Source: a bacterium
Lineage (GTDB): Bacteria > Patescibacteriota > Patescibacteriia > JACPHY01
Length of the DNA stretch: 64,000 nt
Direction: 5' to 3'
NCBI GenBank assembly: GCA_030646955.1
Contig: JAUSKM010000028.1
Coordinates: forward strand, 1,065 to 65,064
The notes beneath the pieces were generated by a model. It was not told where the DNA came from. It did no database searches and worked only from the letters and a program-made list of their open reading frames with translations. This document shows, one piece after another, positions 1,636 through 39,615 of the stretch; the stretch's first letter is position 1, and the number at the start of each line of letters is the position of its first letter. Position numbers and translations under genes: made by a program.

Positions 1636-2661
1636 ATGTTCGGAATCGGTATCGGTGAAGGGTTCGGGTTGTTCAGCAAGTTCTTCACGGCGGAGGACGG
1701 CGAGAACGCGCTCGCGTCCCTCGGGGAGCATCTCTCCGCAAAGCGTGTGGTGTTCGTGGACACGTGCGCCACGCCCGTGCTGGCGGAGGTCATCGGGACG
1801 CTCGTCGCTCGCGGCGTGGAGGTCCACGTGCGCGACCACCACCGCGGCGAGGGTCGTACGCCCGAGGCCGTGGAGGCCATCGAGGCGGTGCTGGGAAAGC
1901 GGGCGCACATCGTGGCGCGCAAGGAGGCGCCCGCGTGCGCGCTGCTGCTGCGGCACGGTGAGTTCCGCGGCCCGGGCACGGTCATCGTGGCCGATCCGGA
2001 TTTGGATGGGCTCACCGCGGCGATGAAGGCCGCGGGCGTGGCGTACGAAGGCATGGATCAGGACGCCGAGATCTTCGACGTCCGGCCGCGCCAGTCCGCG
2101 GAGACGCTGACGCCGTTCGGATGGGTCCTGGTGCGGGCGCTGTCCTCGCTGCCGCTGTTCGATCCGGACCGTCCGGGCGACAGCGACCGCGCGAAGGCGG
2201 ACTTCTTCTACGGCATCGTTCGCGCGGTCATGGGTGACAGCATCGAGCGCCGCGAGTTGGAGGACCGCGCGCGGCACTACGACGCCTGCGTGGCCGAGTC
2301 GCGGCGGATGCTCAAGGAGCACATGGATAAGCCGCTGCCCGGCGTGTGTTTCGTGGACACGATGGGTGCGGCGCCGTTCGACTTCACCACCCTCACACAG
2401 GGGATGGAGCAGGCCGGTGCCGTGGTGACCGCGGTCCGCAAGGACAGCGGTCCCATCGCGCGGCTGCACGGCGGTGTCCAGTACTCGCTGGCGGTGGTGC
2501 AGCGCCACCAGCGCGAGCTGGACCTGCGTACGCTGGTGCCCGCGGGGACGCCCATCGGTCTCGAGGCCGGCCTCATTTCCAACACGCCGTTCCTGCTGCA
2601 CTGCAGCAGCGAGGTGTGGATGCAGACCATCTTCTACGCGCTCGCGATGCGCCTCAGGTAG
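1636..2661 (+). CDS. hypothetical protein (341 aa)
   Basis: A long ORF in the track has an internal ATG that follows GGAG. I could not recognise a family. It lies downstream of element D. Confidence 0.55.
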   Translation: MFGIGIGEGFGLFSKFFTAEDGENALASLGEHLSAKRVVFVDTCATPVLAEVIGTLVARGVEVHVRDHHRGEGRTPEAVEAIEAVLGKRAHIVARKEAPACALLLRHGEFRGPGTVIVADPDLDGLTAAMKAAGVAYEGMDQDAEIFDVRPRQSAETLTPFGWVLVRALSSLPLFDPDRPGDSDRAKADFFYGIVRAVMGDSIERRELEDRARHYDACVAESRRMLKEHMDKPLPGVCFVDTMGAAPFDFTTLTQGMEQAGAVVTAVRKDSGPIARLHGGVQYSLAVVQRHQRELDLRTLVPAGTPIGLEAGLISNTPFLLHCSSEVWMQTIFYALAMRLR

Positions 2662-2764
2662 TTCCTTTCCCAAGAGCCACGTGCGTGTGCATGCATGCGC
2701 ACGTGGTCCCACCCCGGCACGCGATACAGTCGCACATCGAGGTGGGAGATTCGAGCGGAGCGCT

Positions 2765-2905
2765 TGCCACATGTCATTTCGAACGGAGCGCAGCGAAGAG
2801 AGAAATCTCACGCGCCGCAAACTTTGGAGAAACTTCGGTAACTTATGGAGCGCAATCAAACGATGGGGCGTGTGAGATTTCTCACTGCGTTCGAAATGAC
2901 AGGAG
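2765..2905. repeat. Inverted-repeat pair (about 40-nt arms at 2765-2812 and 2862-2905), a variant of the GTCATTTCGA…GAAATCTCAC hairpin repeat
   Basis: The arm GTCATTTCGAACGGAGCG…AGAAATCTCAC is mirrored by GTGAGATTTCTCACTGCGTTCGAAATGAC. Confidence 0.5.
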
Positions 2906-2912
2906 TTACATG

Positions 2913-2953
2913 TTTGGCTCAATAAACATAGTAAATAGCTACATTGAGCCAAA
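2913..2953 (+). promoter_or_regulatory. Palindromic operator-like site TTTGGCTCAAT-N19-ATTGAGCCAAA abutting the -35 box
   Basis: This is a perfect 11-bp inverted repeat that ends 15 nt upstream of TTGACA. Confidence 0.4.
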
Positions 2954-2968
2954 AAGGTAAAACTGGTC

Positions 2969-2997
2969 TTGACACTTCTGACAGCGCGAGGTATAAT
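2969..2997 (+). promoter_or_regulatory. Consensus sigma70-type promoter TTGACA-N17-TATAAT
   Basis: The hexamers are exact, the spacer is 17 nt, and local GC is about 50%. Confidence 0.55.
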
Positions 2998-3004
2998 GGT
3001 TTTG

Positions 3005-3345
3005 TACAATGATTTGTGACTCTGAAGGTGCGGATTGGAGCTTCACAAACGCAGATGGATTGCGTGCGGCACAAGGCGAGTACTTGAGTGGCAAGAAATA
3101 GTGTCAACTCGCTGACATGTCGCATTCCAACGGCAGAGTATCTGCCAGAGGAGAGAGCCCGAGTGACGGGGTTACAGTCACACCGCACGTTGTTACGAAA
3201 GCAATGCACCACGCTTCCGCGTTTCCCTACCTCCAAATGCCGAGGGGGACGCGGCAGCCGCAGTGTGGAATGCTGTCGTGACAACGTTCGAAAACCATAA
3301 ACCCGAAACTCCCTCCTCGCTTGGTGCGAAGGGGGAGTTTTGATT
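3005..3345 (+). ncRNA. Candidate ~340-nt non-coding leader or sRNA from the consensus promoter, ending in an intrinsic terminator
   Basis: No credible ORF is present. The only track ORF, 3088..3300, is low-complexity. The transcript ends at terminator 3306-3341 just before the RBS and ATG of a small peptide gene. Confidence 0.3.
3306..3341 (+). terminator. Intrinsic terminator or attenuator hairpin followed by a TTTT tract
   Basis: AAACTCCCTCCTCGC-ttggt-GCGAAGGGGGAGTTTT forms a stem of about 15 bp with two bulges. Confidence 0.5.
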
Positions 3346-3356
3346 GGAGGATGCAC

Positions 3357-3491
3357 GATGAATAACCCCGCGTCTGTCGTGGCGGCCATCACCGCCGGAA
3401 TCGCGGCGGCGCACGGTCACTGGCTGGTGGTCGCGGCGCTGGTCGTTCTCGGCATCGTAGCCGAGGTCGTACATCGCCGAGGCAAACGGTG
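3357..3491 (+). CDS. small membrane peptide (44 aa; MNNPASVVAAITAGIAAAHGHWLVVAALVVLGIVAEVVHRRGKR)
   Basis: GGAGG sits 8 nt upstream of the ATG. The peptide is hydrophobic. It is absent from the ORF track because it is under 60 aa. Confidence 0.4.
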
Positions 3492-3499
3492 ACATGCAA

Positions 3500-3567
3500 A
3501 TGCCGACCCGCGTCGGCATCCCACCCGAGCGCTGCAACCCTAGTGGCCTGCAGTGCTCGGGCGGGAT
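3500..3567 (+). repeat. Bipartite hairpin element, copy H: ATGCCGAC-ccgc-GTCGGCAT then ATCCCACCCGAGCGCTGCA…TGCAGTGCTCGGGCGGGAT
   Basis: It has the same outer stem as copies A-C. Confidence 0.55.
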
Positions 3568-4586
3568 GAGGACGTTACCGTGCAAGCCGGTTGCACCCGC
3601 GGATTGCTCCGCGGAAGTTTCGTGCAAATGCAACGTTCGTTCCCCGCGACGCCGCGACGATGCGGCGTGAACAAGAAGCGGAGGTCGCCAAAGCTCACTG
3701 CGGGTTTACCGCGAGCGATGAGCGATGGGGCGATACTCCATCTCCGGCGCGGCAGCCAGCGAAGCCGTGCCTAGCCATGAGCCGAAGAAAGAGGTGCAGA
3801 TGAAGGTTTGAAAAGCGCCATGACCCAGCGCTGAAACAGAAAAGGGGTTGCGTAACGAAGTGACCGCCGTTCGTCTGGGCTGCTATCCCAGCGGCAATGC
3901 CGGTAGACCAACGGTCGGTTCGTGTGTGTGACTGCAGGGATGGGAACCTGCAGGGACCTGCATCGGAGCAAAGCGGAGGTGGTACATGAAGCCGTAGAGG
4001 CGCTGACTGGCAGCGCGAACAGAAATAAATCAGACACCGTGCGGACCCCACCGGCCGCTGCGCCCGACGATGGGAGCGGCCAAGGCAAGACTCGAACAGA
4101 GCCCAATGGAGGTGGTACATGCGGCAGTGAGTGCGCCAATGGAGCCGGCGCGGTACAAATGGGTTCCACAAGGATCGTCCGCACTCCGAGCTGCCTCTGC
4201 CGTGAGGAGCGGGGTCGGACAAACCACAACCAGGGGAACGATGCGCGGCACAACGACCTAGCCCGCGCGAAGATCGTTTCCCAAACCCACGCCTGGCGCA
4301 AGGAGGCGCCGTGACATGACGGATTGGTTTTGAGCGCCAATACAGCCACGGGTCGGCGCAAACAGAAATAGGACCCAAACGGAGGCGCCGCGCCTCTGGA
4401 GGCCACGGTTCCCGAGTACCGGACGCGCCGCGAAGCGGTGACAAAACTCGGCGGGGCTTCCCACTCGGATATGCCTCGAAGTCAGGACACGGTGCATTCG
4501 GAAGTACAGCACACGAGTGTTCCTGATGAACCGTTCCTTTCCACGTCCCCGCGCCCAGTTGTTCTCCACCTGCGCGGATGCGACGA

Positions 4587-4678
4587 GATCCCGACTGCAT
4601 GCAGTCGGGATCCCACCCGGGCCTCTTGGAGCCGCGCTACGTGCCGCAAGGCATGTACTCCAAGGGTCCGGGTGGGAT
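4587..4678 (+). repeat. Bipartite hairpin element, copy F: GATCCCGACTGCA/TGCAGTCGGGATC then ATCCCACCCGGGCCTCTTGGAG…CTCCAAGGGTCCGGGTGGGAT
   Basis: The loop is CCGCGCTACGTGCCGCAAGGCATGTA. It lies immediately upstream of the lipoprotein gene. Confidence 0.6.
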
Positions 4679-4732
4679 TGGAAGCGAAGTACCTTCAACC
4701 GTGCGGCGCATGCGCCGCGGAAAGGATCGAAC

Positions 4733-5039: not shown

Positions 5040-5127
5040 CCCGCTCCGGTACAGAGCGGGATTCCACATGGGTGCTGCAGGCCGCGCTATCCGCCGCAAG
5101 GCGGGTACCTGCAACGCCCATGTGGGG
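5040..5127 (+). repeat. Bipartite hairpin element, copy E: CCCGCTC-cggtaca-GAGCGGG then CCACATGGGTGCTGCAGG…CCTGCAACGCCCATGTGG
   Basis: The loop is CCGCGCTATCCGCCGCAAGGCGGGTA. Confidence 0.55.
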
Positions 5128-5285
5128 TATAGCCCCGATGTTTCTGTCATCTCGACGAGGCTGCGAGGAGGAATCTTACCCGCTACAATAGATTGGGGTG
5201 TGTGAGATCCCTCGCGCCGCAGACGGTACTCGGGATGACGGAAGAATGTTCGATCGCAACGACGGTCGCATGATTGGCACTGCTC

Positions 5286-5372
5286 GGCAAGAAGAGGACG
5301 GGTCGTCCTGCCCGTAAGGGTCGCCGGGGTAAGCGTGGGTTCGATTCCCGCCGGTGCCACCAGCAGTACGGG
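5286..5372 (+). other. tRNA-like minihelix: 7-bp acceptor stem, T-arm GTGGG-TTCGATT-CCCGC, discriminator A and CCA, but no canonical D or anticodon arms
   Basis: The 3' end …GGGTTCGATTCCCGCCGGTGCCACCA pairs with the 5' strand GGCACTG. The internal 52 nt cannot be folded into an anticodon stem-loop. Confidence 0.3.
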
Positions 5373-6273: not shown

Positions 6274-6369
6274 GATCCCGACCGTCCGTATGAGGTCGGG
6301 ATCCCACCCGGGTACGAGAAGCCGCGCTATTGGATCGCAAGATTCAGTACTTCTCCACCCGGGTGGGAT
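6274..6369 (+). repeat. Bipartite hairpin element, copy G: GATCCCGACC…GGTCGGGATC then ATCCCACCCGGGTACGAGAAG…CTTCTCCACCCGGGTGGGAT
   Basis: The loop is CCGCGCTATTGGATCGCAAGATTCAGTA. It lies upstream of membrane protein 6434. Confidence 0.6.
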
Positions 6370-6433
6370 TGTATAAGGAGCGTTCATTCACCATCACGCA
6401 TCTGCTAGAGCGGGTGCAAGAGAGGAGTGTGCA

Positions 6434-6790: not shown

Positions 6791-7021
6791 TCCACGTCTC
6801 CGCGCGGTGACATATGGCCTTGCGCCGTTCTTCGTCGCGCAGCGCCCGCTGCATCTGACGATGTGTCACCGGTATACTGCGATAGTCCCCACAGCCTCAC
6901 CCTTGAGGTCACCGTGGGGACTCCCTCCGTTGGATTGGAACCTCGATCCAACAGAGGGAGAAAGCTCCCATTTCACAACACGAAGGGGCAATGCCCCTTC
7001 CCTCCAGAGAGAGGAGAAGCG

Positions 7022-7933
7022 ATGCGAACGTTCGTGATGATGGCCTGCCTCGCCGTGATGGCGGGCGGGTGCGGAGCAACGCAGCAGGGCGATCAGCCGG
7101 CCGCGGCCGTGCAGCCCGAAAGCCACAAGGAGACGCCGACGCAGGCCACTGCGCCGCTCGAGGACTCCAAGTACCCGCAGATCACAGAGATCATGAGGGG
7201 GGTCAGCCCCGATCAGTGCGATGAGGTGGGTATCTTCGGGCAGCTCTTGCGCGTCTTCGCAAAGATGCCCGACGAGCAGTTGCGGCGGGTGCAGCAAGAG
7301 TGCGACGTCGAGCAAGATGGGATGGTTGCAACCGCCGTACCGTGCATCATGACCGTGGCACAGGCCGTTGCGGACGCTCGTCGCGCGCCCGGCGGGCCGT
7401 GCAGCGCCACGGACCAGCGCGCCGAGGCCGAGCGGCTGACCACGGAGCTTCGTGAGTTCCCCCCGCCGCCCGAGCCCATGCCGGAGCCGATGCCGACGAA
7501 GCTCGCGCTGGAGCTGTGGACCGGCTACATGCTCATGGACCTGGAGCAGTCGCCGCCCAAGATGGTGGCGCTTGACACCGAGCACTACATCACCTGGGCG
7601 GAGGCGCTCAAGAACGGTGTCGTGCTGCAGCCCGAACCGCTTCCCGGTGGCGGATGGTGCTTCCCGGTTCCGGGAGGCGTGATCTTTCGCAGCGTCTGTT
7701 CCTCGGAGAACGGCGTGTGGGGGACCATCGTCATCGACAGCGGCAAGGACGCGGGGCACGCGTTCAACGTGCGCGCCCACAAGGTGGAATCCATGCTCGA
7801 CCCGTGTTCCCGGGGCGTCTGCGGCAAGTTCTACAAGCTCGTCGCGGACGACGTCGTCGGGTGCAGCGGCCCGCGCTGCCGCGAGTTTTGGGAGCACACC
7901 AACGACTCCTCCTCTTCCCTCAAGCAGCTTTGA
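7022..7933 (+). CDS. secreted lipoprotein with Cys-rich C-terminal domain (GGGWCFPVPG…DDVVGCSGPRCRE), paralogue of 11403..12269
   Basis: GAGGAGAAG RBS is present. The signal peptide plus MAGGC lipobox indicates a lipoprotein. The C-terminal ~100 aa are shared with the 11403 gene. Confidence 0.6.
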   Translation: MRTFVMMACLAVMAGGCGATQQGDQPAAAVQPESHKETPTQATAPLEDSKYPQITEIMRGVSPDQCDEVGIFGQLLRVFAKMPDEQLRRVQQECDVEQDGMVATAVPCIMTVAQAVADARRAPGGPCSATDQRAEAERLTTELREFPPPPEPMPEPMPTKLALELWTGYMLMDLEQSPPKMVALDTEHYITWAEALKNGVVLQPEPLPGGGWCFPVPGGVIFRSVCSSENGVWGTIVIDSGKDAGHAFNVRAHKVESMLDPCSRGVCGKFYKLVADDVVGCSGPRCREFWEHTNDSSSSLKQL

Positions 7934-10683: not shown

Positions 10684-11262
10684 ATGAGCGATCAGGATCG
10701 TGCGAATGGTTCCGGTGGCGATGTGCGCAACGATTTCGATCAGTGGTTCTGGGACGTGTGCCTGCCGAACGCGATGGACGCAAAGCACGGCGCCGATACG
10801 GAACCGTACGATGCGGACGACACGTACTCCTGGGGTGACGATTTGTACCCCTGGGAGCAGGAGCAGGAGGACGCCGCCCAGGACGAGGCAGACACCATCT
10901 ACTACGATGAGCTGCAGGCGGACCTCGACAACATGGACGAGTGGCTGCGCGAGGAGGACGAGCGTAGGCAGCGCGACGAGGAAGATCGCAACGAATTCTT
11001 CATCTTCGCTCGGCAGCATCGCCTGCCCGCCCCGCTCCGCACCCAGTTCTTCACCTGCCTCGACGGCGAGCAGTGCGCTGGCATGAGCGGCGACGTGTAC
11101 CGGCGCAGCGCGAGGAATCGCAGCTGGGACCGCTACCAGCGGGACTGCAAGGACAAGACCCTCCGCTCCTGGAAGCGCTACCGCGAGCGGCAGTGGTGGC
11201 GATTCCCGTCGCGTGCGTGGATGCGGCACCACCCGGGCCTCGACGAGTGGCCGAACGTTTGA
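10684..11262 (+). CDS. hypothetical acidic protein with Arg/Trp-rich C-terminus (192 aa)
   Basis: AAAGGAGG lies 6 nt upstream. The D/E-rich N-terminal two thirds are followed by a basic C-terminus. Confidence 0.55.
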   Translation: MSDQDRANGSGGDVRNDFDQWFWDVCLPNAMDAKHGADTEPYDADDTYSWGDDLYPWEQEQEDAAQDEADTIYYDELQADLDNMDEWLREEDERRQRDEEDRNEFFIFARQHRLPAPLRTQFFTCLDGEQCAGMSGDVYRRSARNRSWDRYQRDCKDKTLRSWKRYRERQWWRFPSRAWMRHHPGLDEWPNV

Positions 11263-11402
11263 TGATCGTAGTTGCCGACCCTCATGGTCGGCAACTCCCC
11301 TGAGCCATCGCACAACGATGGTTCAGGGGAGGAAGTCCTCCGCGTTTTACAACCCCTGGCACTCACGTGCCAGCTTCAGAGGAAGAAAGAAAGGAGTTCC
11401 CG

Positions 11403-12269
11403 ATGCGAAGCATCATGGTGCTCACCCTGGCCGCGGCGCTGGCCGCGTGTGCTGGGACGCAGCAGGAGAGCATGACAACCGTAGACACCGGCAACAGCGG
11501 CATGACCGCGACGCAGTACGCCGTGGCCGAGATGGGACCGTCGGTCTGCTCGGTCGAGGATATCAGCGACGTGCTGACGCAGGCCCTCCGCACCGAGGAA
11601 GATGTGCGCGAGTTCCAGCGCGGGTGCGGCATCAATCCGAGCACGGGCGTGCTGGATGACGCAACGGGCTCGTGCATCCATTCCACCGCGAGCACGATCC
11701 TGCAGGCGCGTCGCGAGCTGGGCATGTGCAGCGAGACGCCGGAGCCGCACGGCTCGGCCGAGGATCTGGTCCGCGATCTCCGCGAGTCGCTCGCGCAGGT
11801 GCCGCCCCCGCTCGGACCGATGCCCAGCGTGTCGCCGCTTCCCGCGGAGCTCCGGTTCGCCGCGTGGAGCGGGTTCGCCATCGTGAGCCTCGATCACGCG
11901 CCGCCGCGGGCTGCGGCGCTCGATGCGAACGGCCCCATCACGCAGGACGCGTTTTCTCGGGGTGTGGAGCTCCAGGCCGAGCAGATTCCCGGCGGCGGGT
12001 GGTGCTTCCCGGTTCCCGGGAGCATGACCTTCCGCGCGATCTGCTCGTCCGATAACGGCGTGTGGGGTGAGGTCGCGGTTCGCGATAGCGAGTTTGCCGG
12101 GCATACGCTCAACGTGCGTGCGACCAAGTATCCGATGTCGGGCCTCATCGCGTGCAGCGGCGATATCTGCGGCAACGTCTACAGCCTTGCCACCGACGAT
12201 GTTGTCGGGTGCAGCGGCCCGCGCTGCCGCGAGCTGTTCGACCGGAACCTGCGACCCAAGTCCGAGTAG
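11403..12269 (+). CDS. secreted lipoprotein paralogue (288 aa) sharing the Cys-rich C-terminal domain with 7022..7933
   Basis: AAAGGAG RBS is present with lipobox LAAC. The C-terminus GGGWCFPVPGSMTFRAICSS…DDVVGCSGPRCRE matches the 7022 gene. Confidence 0.6.
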   Translation: MRSIMVLTLAAALAACAGTQQESMTTVDTGNSGMTATQYAVAEMGPSVCSVEDISDVLTQALRTEEDVREFQRGCGINPSTGVLDDATGSCIHSTASTILQARRELGMCSETPEPHGSAEDLVRDLRESLAQVPPPLGPMPSVSPLPAELRFAAWSGFAIVSLDHAPPRAAALDANGPITQDAFSRGVELQAEQIPGGGWCFPVPGSMTFRAICSSDNGVWGEVAVRDSEFAGHTLNVRATKYPMSGLIACSGDICGNVYSLATDDVVGCSGPRCRELFDRNLRPKSE

Positions 12270-38500: not shown

Positions 38501-38722
38501 CTACCGGCGGTAGTTGAGCCCATGCCAAAACCAGTGATCGCTGTCGTCATGTTCCCATCCAGAAGAGCCGCCGTAAGGACCTTTGGAACCAGGTGGATGC
38601 ATGATGCGGGCACTTTTATCTTGAGTGAGGTTGTGTCCGCACGCCGCACAGTGCTCCGAGTCTCCTCCGTTGCATGTGTCGAGAAGTCCTTCATGGCCAC
38701 AATTCGGACATCGTCCAAACAT
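38501..38722 (-). CDS. small zinc-ribbon protein (73 aa; CPNCGH…CAACGH)
   Basis: It is a paralogue of 38276..38473 and the first gene of the minus-strand operon. Confidence 0.5.
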   Translation of the reverse strand: MFGRCPNCGHEGLLDTCNGGDSEHCAACGHNLTQDKSARIMHPPGSKGPYGGSSGWEHDDSDHWFWHGLNYRR

Positions 38723-38883
38723 GATTTTTCTCCTGCTGTCGGTTGTGAAGGTACTATTGCCACGATACAGCGCCCGTGGCGATAGAGGGGATTGAATTGA
38801 AGAAAATTGATACGATTTTCCTGCACGCTACCAATTTTCAATTAAATATGGTTCTATTGATATATAAAAATGTGTAACGTTTT

Positions 38884-39615
38884 ATGACACAAATAGAGCC
38901 AGCAGTACTTGAACAGGCAGGACTCTCTCGGGAAGAGGGGGCGGTGTATCTTGCGCTTCTTGTCGGGGATGCGACGGTTGCGGAGATTGCGCGGCGTGCG
39001 AAGTTGCACCGTCCGCAGGTGTACCAGCTCCTCGGTACGCTTGCGGAGCGCGGATTGGTGACCCCGCTCACGAAAGGGAAGCGCACACACTATGCGGCGA
39101 GTGCGCCGGCGAGGCTCCACGAGCTATTCGTTGAGCGTGCGCAGGCATTTGAGCGCGCAGTCACCGCTCTGGAGCAGCAGCACGCGGCGAGTGGTGTCGC
39201 GCCGTCAGTGCGGGTGCTAACGGGCGCAAAAGGGCTCCGTTCCGTGCTGGAAGACCTCACTGCCAAGCTGCCGAACGGCGGCATCTTCTATCGGTACAGT
39301 TCTCGTTCACCGCGGCTTGATGCAGAGCGATTTGTTCCTAAGGAGTATCGTGCAAAGCGGACAGCGGCGAAGATTGAGCAGTTTGTTATCACGAATGCTG
39401 CGCTTCGCACCGCGCCGCATCAGCGTCGTATCGAATGCTATTCTAAGATGGTACCCAAGGGCGATGATCCATTTGAGTACAATGTTGCGCTCCTCGTGTA
39501 TGGGAACACGGTCGCCACGGTGGACTATGAAGGCGAAATCGCGCTCATCATAGAAAATGAACGTATCGCCCGTTTCCATGAGCGCATTTTTCGCCTCCTG
39601 TTTGAGCGTTTGTAG
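38884..39615 (+). CDS. TrmB-family transcriptional regulator
   Basis: The N-terminal winged HTH is LSREEGAVYLALLVGDATVAEIARRAKLHRPQVYQLLGTLAERGLV. An AT-rich promoter region lies upstream. Confidence 0.7.
   Translation: MTQIEPAVLEQAGLSREEGAVYLALLVGDATVAEIARRAKLHRPQVYQLLGTLAERGLVTPLTKGKRTHYAASAPARLHELFVERAQAFERAVTALEQQHAASGVAPSVRVLTGAKGLRSVLEDLTAKLPNGGIFYRYSSRSPRLDAERFVPKEYRAKRTAAKIEQFVITNAALRTAPHQRRIECYSKMVPKGDDPFEYNVALLVYGNTVATVDYEGEIALIIENERIARFHERIFRLLFERL

Follow-up and report, generated by a model that had tools for sequence, protein, structure and literature searches.

The DNA considered here is a 64-kb stretch of contig JAUSKM010000028.1 (henceforth termed the window) from a member of the Patescibacteria, also known as the candidate phyla radiation (CPR). 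Near its left end, the gene for a putative DHH/DHHA1 phosphoesterase (1636–2661) is followed by palindromic DNA, a strong promoter, a non-coding leader or small RNA (sRNA) of about 340 nt (3004–3345, + strand) that ends in an intrinsic terminator, and an open reading frame (ORF) for a 44-aa membrane peptide. Comparison with related loci places this RNA in a family of Patescibacteria leaders that share an invariant GAGAG element, of which the window leader is the first recognised member of high guanine-cytosine (GC) content. We favour, with moderate confidence, the view that it is a cis-acting transcription-attenuation leader of the terminator/antiterminator type, belonging to an RNA family of Patescibacteria that has not previously been described.

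Promoter, leader and terminator at the locus

The promoter consists of TTGACA (2969–2974) and TATAAT (2992–2997) on the + strand, separated by 17 nt, and matches the sigma-70-type consensus at 12 of 12 positions. No other site in the window matches perfectly; five sites in all reach at least 10 of 12, and by our own arithmetic from base composition, about 1e-3 perfect sites would be expected per window. The exactness and rarity that an earlier note, made from the sequence of this DNA, had attributed to the promoter at 2969–2997 are therefore borne out. Transcription presumably starts at about 3004. Upstream, TTTGGCTCAAT (2913–2923) and ATTGAGCCAAA (2943–2953) form an exact 11-bp inverted repeat around a 19-nt spacer (2913–2953, no strand assigned), just as the same note had reported; the arms extend to 2906–2923 and 2943–2960 with 89% complementarity, and the half-site has no other occurrence in the window.

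The GC content over 2600–3400 is 0.47–0.55, compared with 0.62–0.73 in the flanks, and the third-codon-position GC periodicity of the neighbouring genes (GC3 of 0.85–1.0) is absent in 2700–3340. On the + strand, the leader folds with a minimum free energy (MFE) of −143 kcal/mol (z = −5.13), a value that 0 of 100 dinucleotide shuffles reached, and when the region is folded in 200-nt segments, the signal of the + strand exceeds that of the − strand. These data agree with the initial description of an ORF-free, low-GC leader of about 340 nt. Between the conserved core described below and the terminator, the MFE structure contains a long imperfect hairpin (3184–3290, + strand; arms 3184–3209 and 3265–3290). 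This hairpin is lineage-specific: relatives carry unrelated, variable hairpins at the corresponding position.

The leader ends in a predicted intrinsic terminator (3306–3345, + strand), in which a GC-rich, 15-bp interrupted hairpin (arms 3306–3320 and 3326–3340; −26.3 kcal/mol) is followed by the U-tract UUUUGAUU. The hairpin, which had been placed by eye at 3306–3341, was not called by a simple terminator scan, presumably because of a mismatch within the stem. The Shine-Dalgarno sequence GGAGG (3346–3350, + strand), read from the sequence, follows 5 nt after the terminator stem and lies 7 nt before an ATG at 3358, which opens the orphan 44-aa hydrophobic peptide ORF MNNPASVVAAITAGIAAAHGHWLVVAALVVLGIVAEVVHRRGKR (3358–3492, + strand). 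The order of terminator, Shine-Dalgarno sequence and tiny hydrophobic peptide gene is as first described, with the ORF shifted by one base from the 3357–3491 given previously. A gene caller predicted the same ORF on the identical Logan contig L001 (SRR13727527). A single transmembrane stretch is predicted in the peptide, which has a basic C-terminus (HRRGKR); the GC3 of the ORF, about 0.77 (hand count), is like that of other small membrane genes nearby. Since there is no space for a promoter between the terminator and the Shine-Dalgarno sequence and ATG, the ORF would be transcribed only by read-through.

By eye, the earlier note had found no likeness between the leader and tmRNA, RNase P RNA, T-boxes or common riboswitches, and a search with Rfam 15 likewise matched no family: at gathering thresholds, the whole window returned only a tRNA-Ala (597–669), and at E ≤ 10 nothing meaningful appeared over 2650–4000. 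The best sub-threshold match (3155–3182; 23.1 bits, E 0.046, gathering score 38) was to the upstream pseudoknot of the Bromovirus 3' untranslated region (RF01108), a plant-virus element from an unrelated context that resembles the leader in shape only. In 15 related loci searched at gathering and permissive thresholds, the leaders matched no Rfam family; tRNAs, one hammerhead and a sub-threshold tmRNA-like match were found elsewhere. The negatives in the window and its relatives rule out a housekeeping RNA or a known riboswitch, and Rfam detected no small-molecule aptamer of a known class in the leader. No second copy of the leader was found in the window with blastn or nhmmer, and phage collections, plasmid collections and IMG/VR held no match to it.

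A Patescibacteria leader family with an invariant GAGAG

When all fetched loci were searched by nhmmer with the complete RNA as query, only the identical Logan contig was retrieved, and the family link was found only via the regular expression GAGAG(N)CGRG together with reading of the loci. One subgroup, termed RNA-1, comprises eight relatives of 46% GC (L002–L009) and two metagenome contigs (L084, L085); the metagenome scan used the RNA-1 pattern and yielded three loci. In these members, a palindromic box and a promoter of the form TTGACA-N17-TAnnnT lie ahead of the DHH gene or its neighbourhood and introduce an RNA of about 170 nt that closes with an intrinsic terminator. The RNA itself is composed of the hairpin AUCCCG-AAGGAGAG-CGGGAU, a variable hairpin, and the sequence CYGCUCUCC, which constitutes the 5' half of the terminator. 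RNAalifold and the folds of single sequences agree on a long-range helix, GGAGAGCGG:CYGCUCUCC, of −13 to −21 kcal/mol, compared with −7 to −11 kcal/mol for the terminator, and this helix excludes the small hairpin as well as the terminator. RNA-1 is a classic three-structure attenuator layout. A candidate leader peptide starting at ATGCCCAAG in RNA-1 was rejected, as ORF lengths were inconsistent and one member has ATA. Further members of the family, with GC contents of 36–58%, are L010, L011, L013 (two copies), L014, L017, L018, L019, L021, L022, L024, L065 and L089, the last being the one member added by the DHH loci L087–L092. GAGAG is invariant in all members, where it occupies a loop or a junction. 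Aligning the window to distant members by MAFFT gave an unreliable result that mis-registered the promoter.

The relatives also share DNA elements upstream of the RNA. When upstream regions are aligned on the −35 hexamer, the promoters prove to be close to the consensus, this hexamer and its spacing are identical in all relatives, and a 14-bp palindromic box, RGCTAAAWTWAGCY, ends 19–28 nt upstream of it in nearly all members (about 18 related promoters). The window carries the box upstream of its own promoter in the form AGCTACATTGAGCC (2937–2950), within the inverted repeat and 18 nt before the −35 hexamer; the spacing in L013b is 19 nt, and about 20 nt upstream of the box the window and L013b alike have TTTGGCTC. 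Because of this shared arrangement, the long palindrome of the earlier note can be read as an extended family box. The sequence ATGACAG(G) recurs about 65–75 nt upstream of the −35 hexamer in the window, L013, L065 and L024.

In six relatives (L013, L018, L022, L024, L065 and L089), the gene for a TrmB-family winged-helix protein divergently adjoins the promoter, and for this reason the box is probably the operator of a TrmB-type regulator. The palindrome that had been termed “operator-like” thus coincides in part with a box that the related promoters share and that stands beside a divergent TrmB gene in six loci. The divergent gene and the palindromic box at a fixed distance from the −35 hexamer recall TrmB regulators with palindromic operators. 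The window departs from this pattern in that its TrmB homologue (38884–39615, + strand), with 26% identity to the TrmB proteins of L013 (gene at 2801–3616) and L089, lies 36 kb from the RNA, and in that the half-sites are 19 nt apart rather than abutting. Upstream of this homologue (38640–38880) the GC content drops low, and the box was not seen there.

Next to GAGAG, the window leader contains a compact core that is also present in two other Patescibacteria, L065 and L013. The GAGAG element GAGGAGAGAG (3148–3157, + strand), the proposed 5' strand of an antiterminator, is followed by CCC-GA-GUGAC-GGGG-UUACA-GUCAC (3158–3181, + strand), with the pairings CCC:GGG (S1) and GUGAC:GUCAC (S2). Across 3151–3181, the core has the form GAGAGAGCCCGAG-stem-GGGGUKAYA-stem: the exact 13-mer GAGAGAGCCCGAG and the loop GGGGUKAYA are common to the three sequences, and S2 covaries to GCCU:AGGC. 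Written out, the cores are GGAGAGAGCCCGAG-UGAC-GGGGUUACA-GUCA in the window, AGAGAGAGCCCGA-GCCU-GGGGUGACA-AGGC in L065 and GAGAGAGCCCGA-GCCU-GGGGUUAUA-AGGC in L013; the L065 core falls within 2022–2072 of its locus and that of L013 within 4235–4284. The order CCC / GA / S2-5' / GGGG / UKAYA / S2-3' is, as judged by reading the sequence, that of an H-type pseudoknot, and the RF01108 match, which covers the same stem-loop and downstream pairing, independently suggests this shape. A covariance model built from L065 and L013 alone gave 3140–3187 as its top window match in 128 kb (14.4 bits, E of about 0.07 under a rough calibration) and also recovered the second L013 copy (E 0.015). Conservation and covariation in related genomes, to which the earlier note had looked for a test of its proposal, are found for the core in L065 and L013; the peptide is conserved nowhere.

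The complement of GAGAG resides in the 5' arm or loop of the terminator at about 20 loci, with covarying flanks. Besides the RNA-1 helix, the pairs are AAGAGAGAGC:GCUCUCUCUU in L019 and L021, GUAGAGAG:CUCUCUAC in L014, UAGAGAGAG:CUCUUUCUA in L065, GCGAGAGA:UCUCUUGC in L013 and GGAGAGAG:CUCUCUCC in L022. In the window, the duplex GAGGAGAGAG:CUCCCUCCUC (3148–3157 with 3309–3318) is paired at 9 of 10 positions and has an energy of −14.9 to −15.5 kcal/mol. When the terminator 3' arm is withheld from folding, the MFE structure (−122.6 kcal/mol) pairs 3148–3173 (GAGGAGAGAG ... GGGGUU) with 3300–3318 (AACCC ... CUCCCUCCUC) and encloses the long variable hairpin of 3184–3290; a competing fold that pairs 3014–3020 with 3174–3180 reaches −118.1 kcal/mol. 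The proposed 3' strand of the antiterminator, AACCCGAAACUCCCUCCUC (3300–3318, + strand), overlaps the terminator 5' arm. Compared with dinucleotide-shuffled downstream sequence, the pairing has p ≤ 0.05 in most members; the window, with its exposed GAGAG(AG) and complement in the terminator 5' arm or loop, has p = 0.033, and a looser test was not significant. A Fisher combination of the p values gives 3e-16, for related members that are not independent. Ungapped counting of pairs in the GAGAG:CUCUC helix was dropped, as it is confounded by pairing of GA with the U-tract.

The leaders of the relatives usually sit between the divergent TrmB-type regulator gene and a DHH/DHHA1 gene, upstream of the latter and co-oriented with it; the window keeps the DHH adjacency, not the order. 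The product of the window gene (1636–2661), directly upstream of the RNA, has about 100 homologues, of which the named ones are from Patescibacteria / Candidatus Uhrbacteria and a more distant set from Melainabacteria. The best non-self match has only 60% identity, so that the host is an Uhrbacteria-like CPR bacterium of high GC content (65%) whose near relatives are missing among sequenced genomes. The protein had no Pfam match, while some homologues carry PF01368 (DHH domain), and a sequence search against the PDB found nothing, so that its placement comes from a fold search only. Its AlphaFold model (pLDDT 94) matches pAp phosphatase (8a8k), the GdpP catalytic domain (5xsi), NrnA/Pde2 (8iu7) and NanoRNase A (5ipp), which identifies it as a two-domain DHH/DHHA1 phosphoesterase. 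The neighbours of the leader had no Pfam match, and PADLOC found no defence systems among the neighbouring proteins.

The related loci hold further elements. At the same place in L002 (7739–7852), L003 (7372–7485), L004–L009 and L085, there is a conserved ORF of 37–38 aa, MSINLxNPTFGFxPMLxHVP...APNFLTA, mostly without a Shine-Dalgarno sequence and followed by the conserved hairpin CCUCUCAC-GNAA-GUGGGAGG; this ORF is absent from the window. L013 has a paralogous GAGAG leader (11210–11455, + strand) about 4 kb downstream of its DHH gene, with box, promoter, GAGAGAGCCCUGG-UC-CAGGG and terminator, after which about 1.4 kb contain no ORFs of at least 70 aa. A conserved non-coding block, ...ACTGGCAAACGGCACAGTCT...GGAGCGTGCCGATTTGCCAGCATGTCGCTGGT...GGTAGCCAATCCG...AAAGGAG, directly precedes the DHH start codon in L015 (640–780), L017 (300–440) and L020 (1770–1915), which suggests a second structured element of the same leader. 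In L010, a Patescibacteria metagenome-assembled genome, a type III hammerhead ribozyme (7085–7140, + strand; 49.1 bits, gathering score 48.5) is located just 3' of the DHH gene.

Proposed attenuation and the competing explanations

In the attenuation model that we favour, the strong sigma-70-type promoter, under a palindromic box probably bound by a TrmB-type regulator, would drive a structured leader. The exposed GAGAG beside the small putative pseudoknot (3148–3181) would pair with the terminator 5' arm (3300–3318), and with this antiterminator helix formed, polymerase would read through into the downstream 44-aa membrane-peptide ORF. An effector that holds the GAGAG/pseudoknot region would instead allow the terminator to form, and the ~340-nt transcript would be released. 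Stabilisation of this region would favour the terminator because the antiterminator uses the GGGG of pseudoknot strand S1. As GAGAG is invariant amid divergence, where a pure pairing partner could covary, it may itself be recognised by a factor. We therefore consider a trans-acting protein that recognises single-stranded GAGAG a more likely effector than a classical small-molecule aptamer, with a small ligand on the pseudoknot as a further possibility. Where the earlier note had left a riboswitch or attenuator beside an independent sRNA, the comparison of about 20 loci favours the attenuator.

Several observations weigh against this model. Judged from the window by itself, the antiterminator does not clearly stand out from chance: an equal length of the terminator arm is paired in 23% of shuffled leaders, and an equally good duplex arises in 15%. 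Strands rich in GA or CU, like U-tracts, also pair readily with many partners. The terminator (−26.3 kcal/mol) exceeds the antiterminator (about −15 kcal/mol) in stability by about 10 kcal/mol, and because it outcompetes the latter, termination is perhaps constitutive, with the free ~340-nt RNA as the product. A profile of the RNA-1 subgroup had no match to the window, and homology of the window leader to this low-GC subgroup is suggested by common architecture and intermediate forms rather than by a sequence profile. The pseudoknot core has three carriers, which makes its covariation thin and the model match marginal, and the window RNA lies downstream of the DHH gene, whereas it lies upstream elsewhere. 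Finally, no homologue of the peptide was found in 5.8 billion clusters or 1.8 billion representatives; because it is conserved nowhere, the leader is assigned to the peptide gene by geometry only.

Some of these points would be expected if the RNA were a stand-alone, abundant, trans-acting sRNA of about 340 nt that, for example, titrates or guides a GAGAG-binding factor, the ORF being incidental or leaky. We regard this as somewhat unlikely and yet as a serious alternative. It would agree with a perfect-consensus promoter and a very stable terminator that thermodynamically outcompetes the antiterminator, with the two copies in L013, with relatives that are followed by long ORF-poor stretches rather than an adjacent gene, and with a DHH linkage that is kept although cis regulation of that gene is impossible in the window. 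What speaks for a switch instead is the family-wide complementarity of the terminator 5' arm to a conserved upstream element, together with the alternative helix of RNA-1, which beats the terminator and would be counter-productive if termination were constitutive; in the window, moreover, the Shine-Dalgarno sequence of the ORF lies 5 nt after the hairpin. A sub-variant of attenuation, in which GAGAGAG-CCC-GA-S2-GGGG-UKAYA-S2' is the aptamer of a small-molecule riboswitch for a nucleotide-derived metabolite related to the linked DHH/DHHA1 enzyme, such as pAp, pApA, cyclic di-AMP (c-di-AMP) or nanoRNA, appears quite unlikely to us. The compact pseudoknot with its invariant loop and S1 nucleotides and covarying S2, the overlap of the S1 strands with the antiterminator in 3 of 3 carriers, and a linked protein that shares the fold of pAp phosphatase, GdpP and NrnA would all suit such a sensor. 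It has, however, only these three carriers, the window RNA follows the DHH gene, and Rfam matched no riboswitch; moreover, other subgroups keep GAGAG and the switch helix while their neighbouring structures differ, which is the inverse of what riboswitches usually show, a conserved aptamer with a variable platform.

Two further explanations are much less probable. A locus resembling type I toxin-antitoxin systems, with the peptide as a membrane toxin and the structured 5' region keeping its mRNA translationally inert, is very improbable: the predicted transmembrane stretch, the HRRGKR end, the long structured upstream RNA and the orphan, fast-evolving ORF would be in keeping with it, but no antisense or divergent promoter-like site was found around 3300–3700, a complete intrinsic terminator separates promoter and ORF, and homologous leaders have no such peptide downstream. 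Least probable of all is that functionless, decaying intergenic DNA has acquired promoter- and terminator-like sequence by chance. The surrounding region is indeed unusually rich in non-coding DNA and repeats, yet only about 1e-3 perfect promoters would be expected per window, the fold z is −5.1, and distant genomes whose GC contents lie up to 30% apart have kept the core, the upstream boxes and the architecture.

Among described systems, the nearest precedent for the favoured attenuation model is PyrR, to which we draw an analogy of working principle rather than of membership. PyrR recognises the sequence ARUCCAGAGAGGYU (PMC7430163), which occupies the terminal loop and the upper part of the stem in an anti-antiterminator hairpin. 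The Bacillus pyr attenuators (RF00515) likewise combine three overlapping structures, namely a protein-binding hairpin, an antiterminator and a terminator; the AGAGAG core of the PyrR site is comparable to CCAGAGGAGAGAG in the window, CCAGAGAGAGC in L021 and GUCCUAGAGAGAGCC in L065; and a hairpin of RNA-1 that displays GGAGAG in its loop competes with the antiterminator. In contrast to these attenuators, there is no RF00515 match at E ≤ 10, the consensus is not preserved in full, and pyr genes are missing from the neighbourhood. In the window, CUGCCAGAGGAGAGAGCC lies in a junction rather than in an anti-antiterminator hairpin, the gene downstream encodes an orphan peptide, and the genes linked to the family are DHH/DHHA1 and TrmB.

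The small H-type pseudoknot riboswitches preQ1-I, SAM-II and guanidine-III offer a second comparison. They resemble the window core in their compact pseudoknot of about 25–35 nt, conserved loop purines and an overlapping expression platform that ends in a terminator, and differ from it in that no sequence or model match was found, that there are three examples of the window type, and that the rest of the family lacks the pseudoknot. Leaders from premature-terminator surveys (e.g., PMC2965389) also have a promoter-proximal intrinsic terminator and an upstream competing helix in the 5' leader; the present family differs in having GAGAG invariant across otherwise differing subgroups and in occurring in CPR bacteria.

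A more specific proposal is that GAGAGAG and the pseudoknot act as the sensor of a CPR-specific riboswitch or ribonucleoprotein switch for a nucleotide-turnover signal (pAp, pApA, c-di-AMP or nanoRNA), tied to DHH/DHHA1, with a small regulon of long leaders and small-protein genes. We put this forward tentatively and consider it rather doubtful.

Surrounding elements and biological meaning

The DNA around the leader contains several additional features. Between the DHH gene and the promoter lies a 130-nt imperfect palindrome (2772–2901; fold z of −8.5 on the + strand and −6.8 on the − strand) with the ends TGTCATTTCGAAC / GTTCGAAATGACA. Its right end is the upstream DNA box AAATGACAGGAG (2894–2905, + strand), which is conserved upstream of related promoters, and an additional perfect palindrome occurs at 2677–2706. 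Downstream of the peptide ORF, about 1.2 kb (3493–4732) show neither coding periodicity nor a fold signal (z of about 0) and are purine-rich on the + strand. Relatives have ORF-poor stretches of 1–3.8 kb 3' of their GAGAG RNAs, with extra GAGAGAG copies in L013 at about 4466, 4603 and 4686. Intergenic hairpins resembling repetitive extragenic palindromes, of the form (G)ATCCCACCCGRG ... CYCGGGTGGGAT(T), are scattered through this part of the window (about 130–178, 703–751, 1172–1215, 1470–1545, 3511–3574, 4609–4680, 5058–5137 and 6296–6372). At 7000–7024, in CCCUUCCCUCC-AGAGAGAGGAGAAGCG-AUG, the gene that starts at 7022 has its ribosome-binding region in a run of GAGAGAG, which a complementary CU-rich stretch precedes.

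A tRNA-like element of 87–90 nt is present in the window (5274–5362, + strand), in L003 (7561–7650) and also in L005, L007 and L009. Its acceptor-like stem of 8 bp differs by two compensatory pairs between the window and the relatives, its T-arm reads GUGGGUUCGAYUCCCRC, and the window encodes an ACCA end. ARAGORN and the tRNA model were silent on it; the only match was a weak one to the tRNA-like domain of the tmRNA model (25.9 bits, gathering score 47), and the element is without G3:U70.

In the literature searched, we found no description of such a regulatory leader RNA in Patescibacteria. The CPR comprises tiny-genome, mostly uncultured bacteria, and if the conserved unit of promoter box, leader and terminator holds, the module would offer a concrete case of gene control by RNA among them. 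The family already provides a seed alignment for an RNA family that Rfam 15 misses. Should the sensor proposal prove true, bacteria whose regulatory repertoires are minimal would have a small regulon, with at least two copies in the L013 genome. Were the effector a nucleotide-derived signal, turnover of RNA or second messengers would be linked to the attenuation of transcription in these salvage-dependent organisms.

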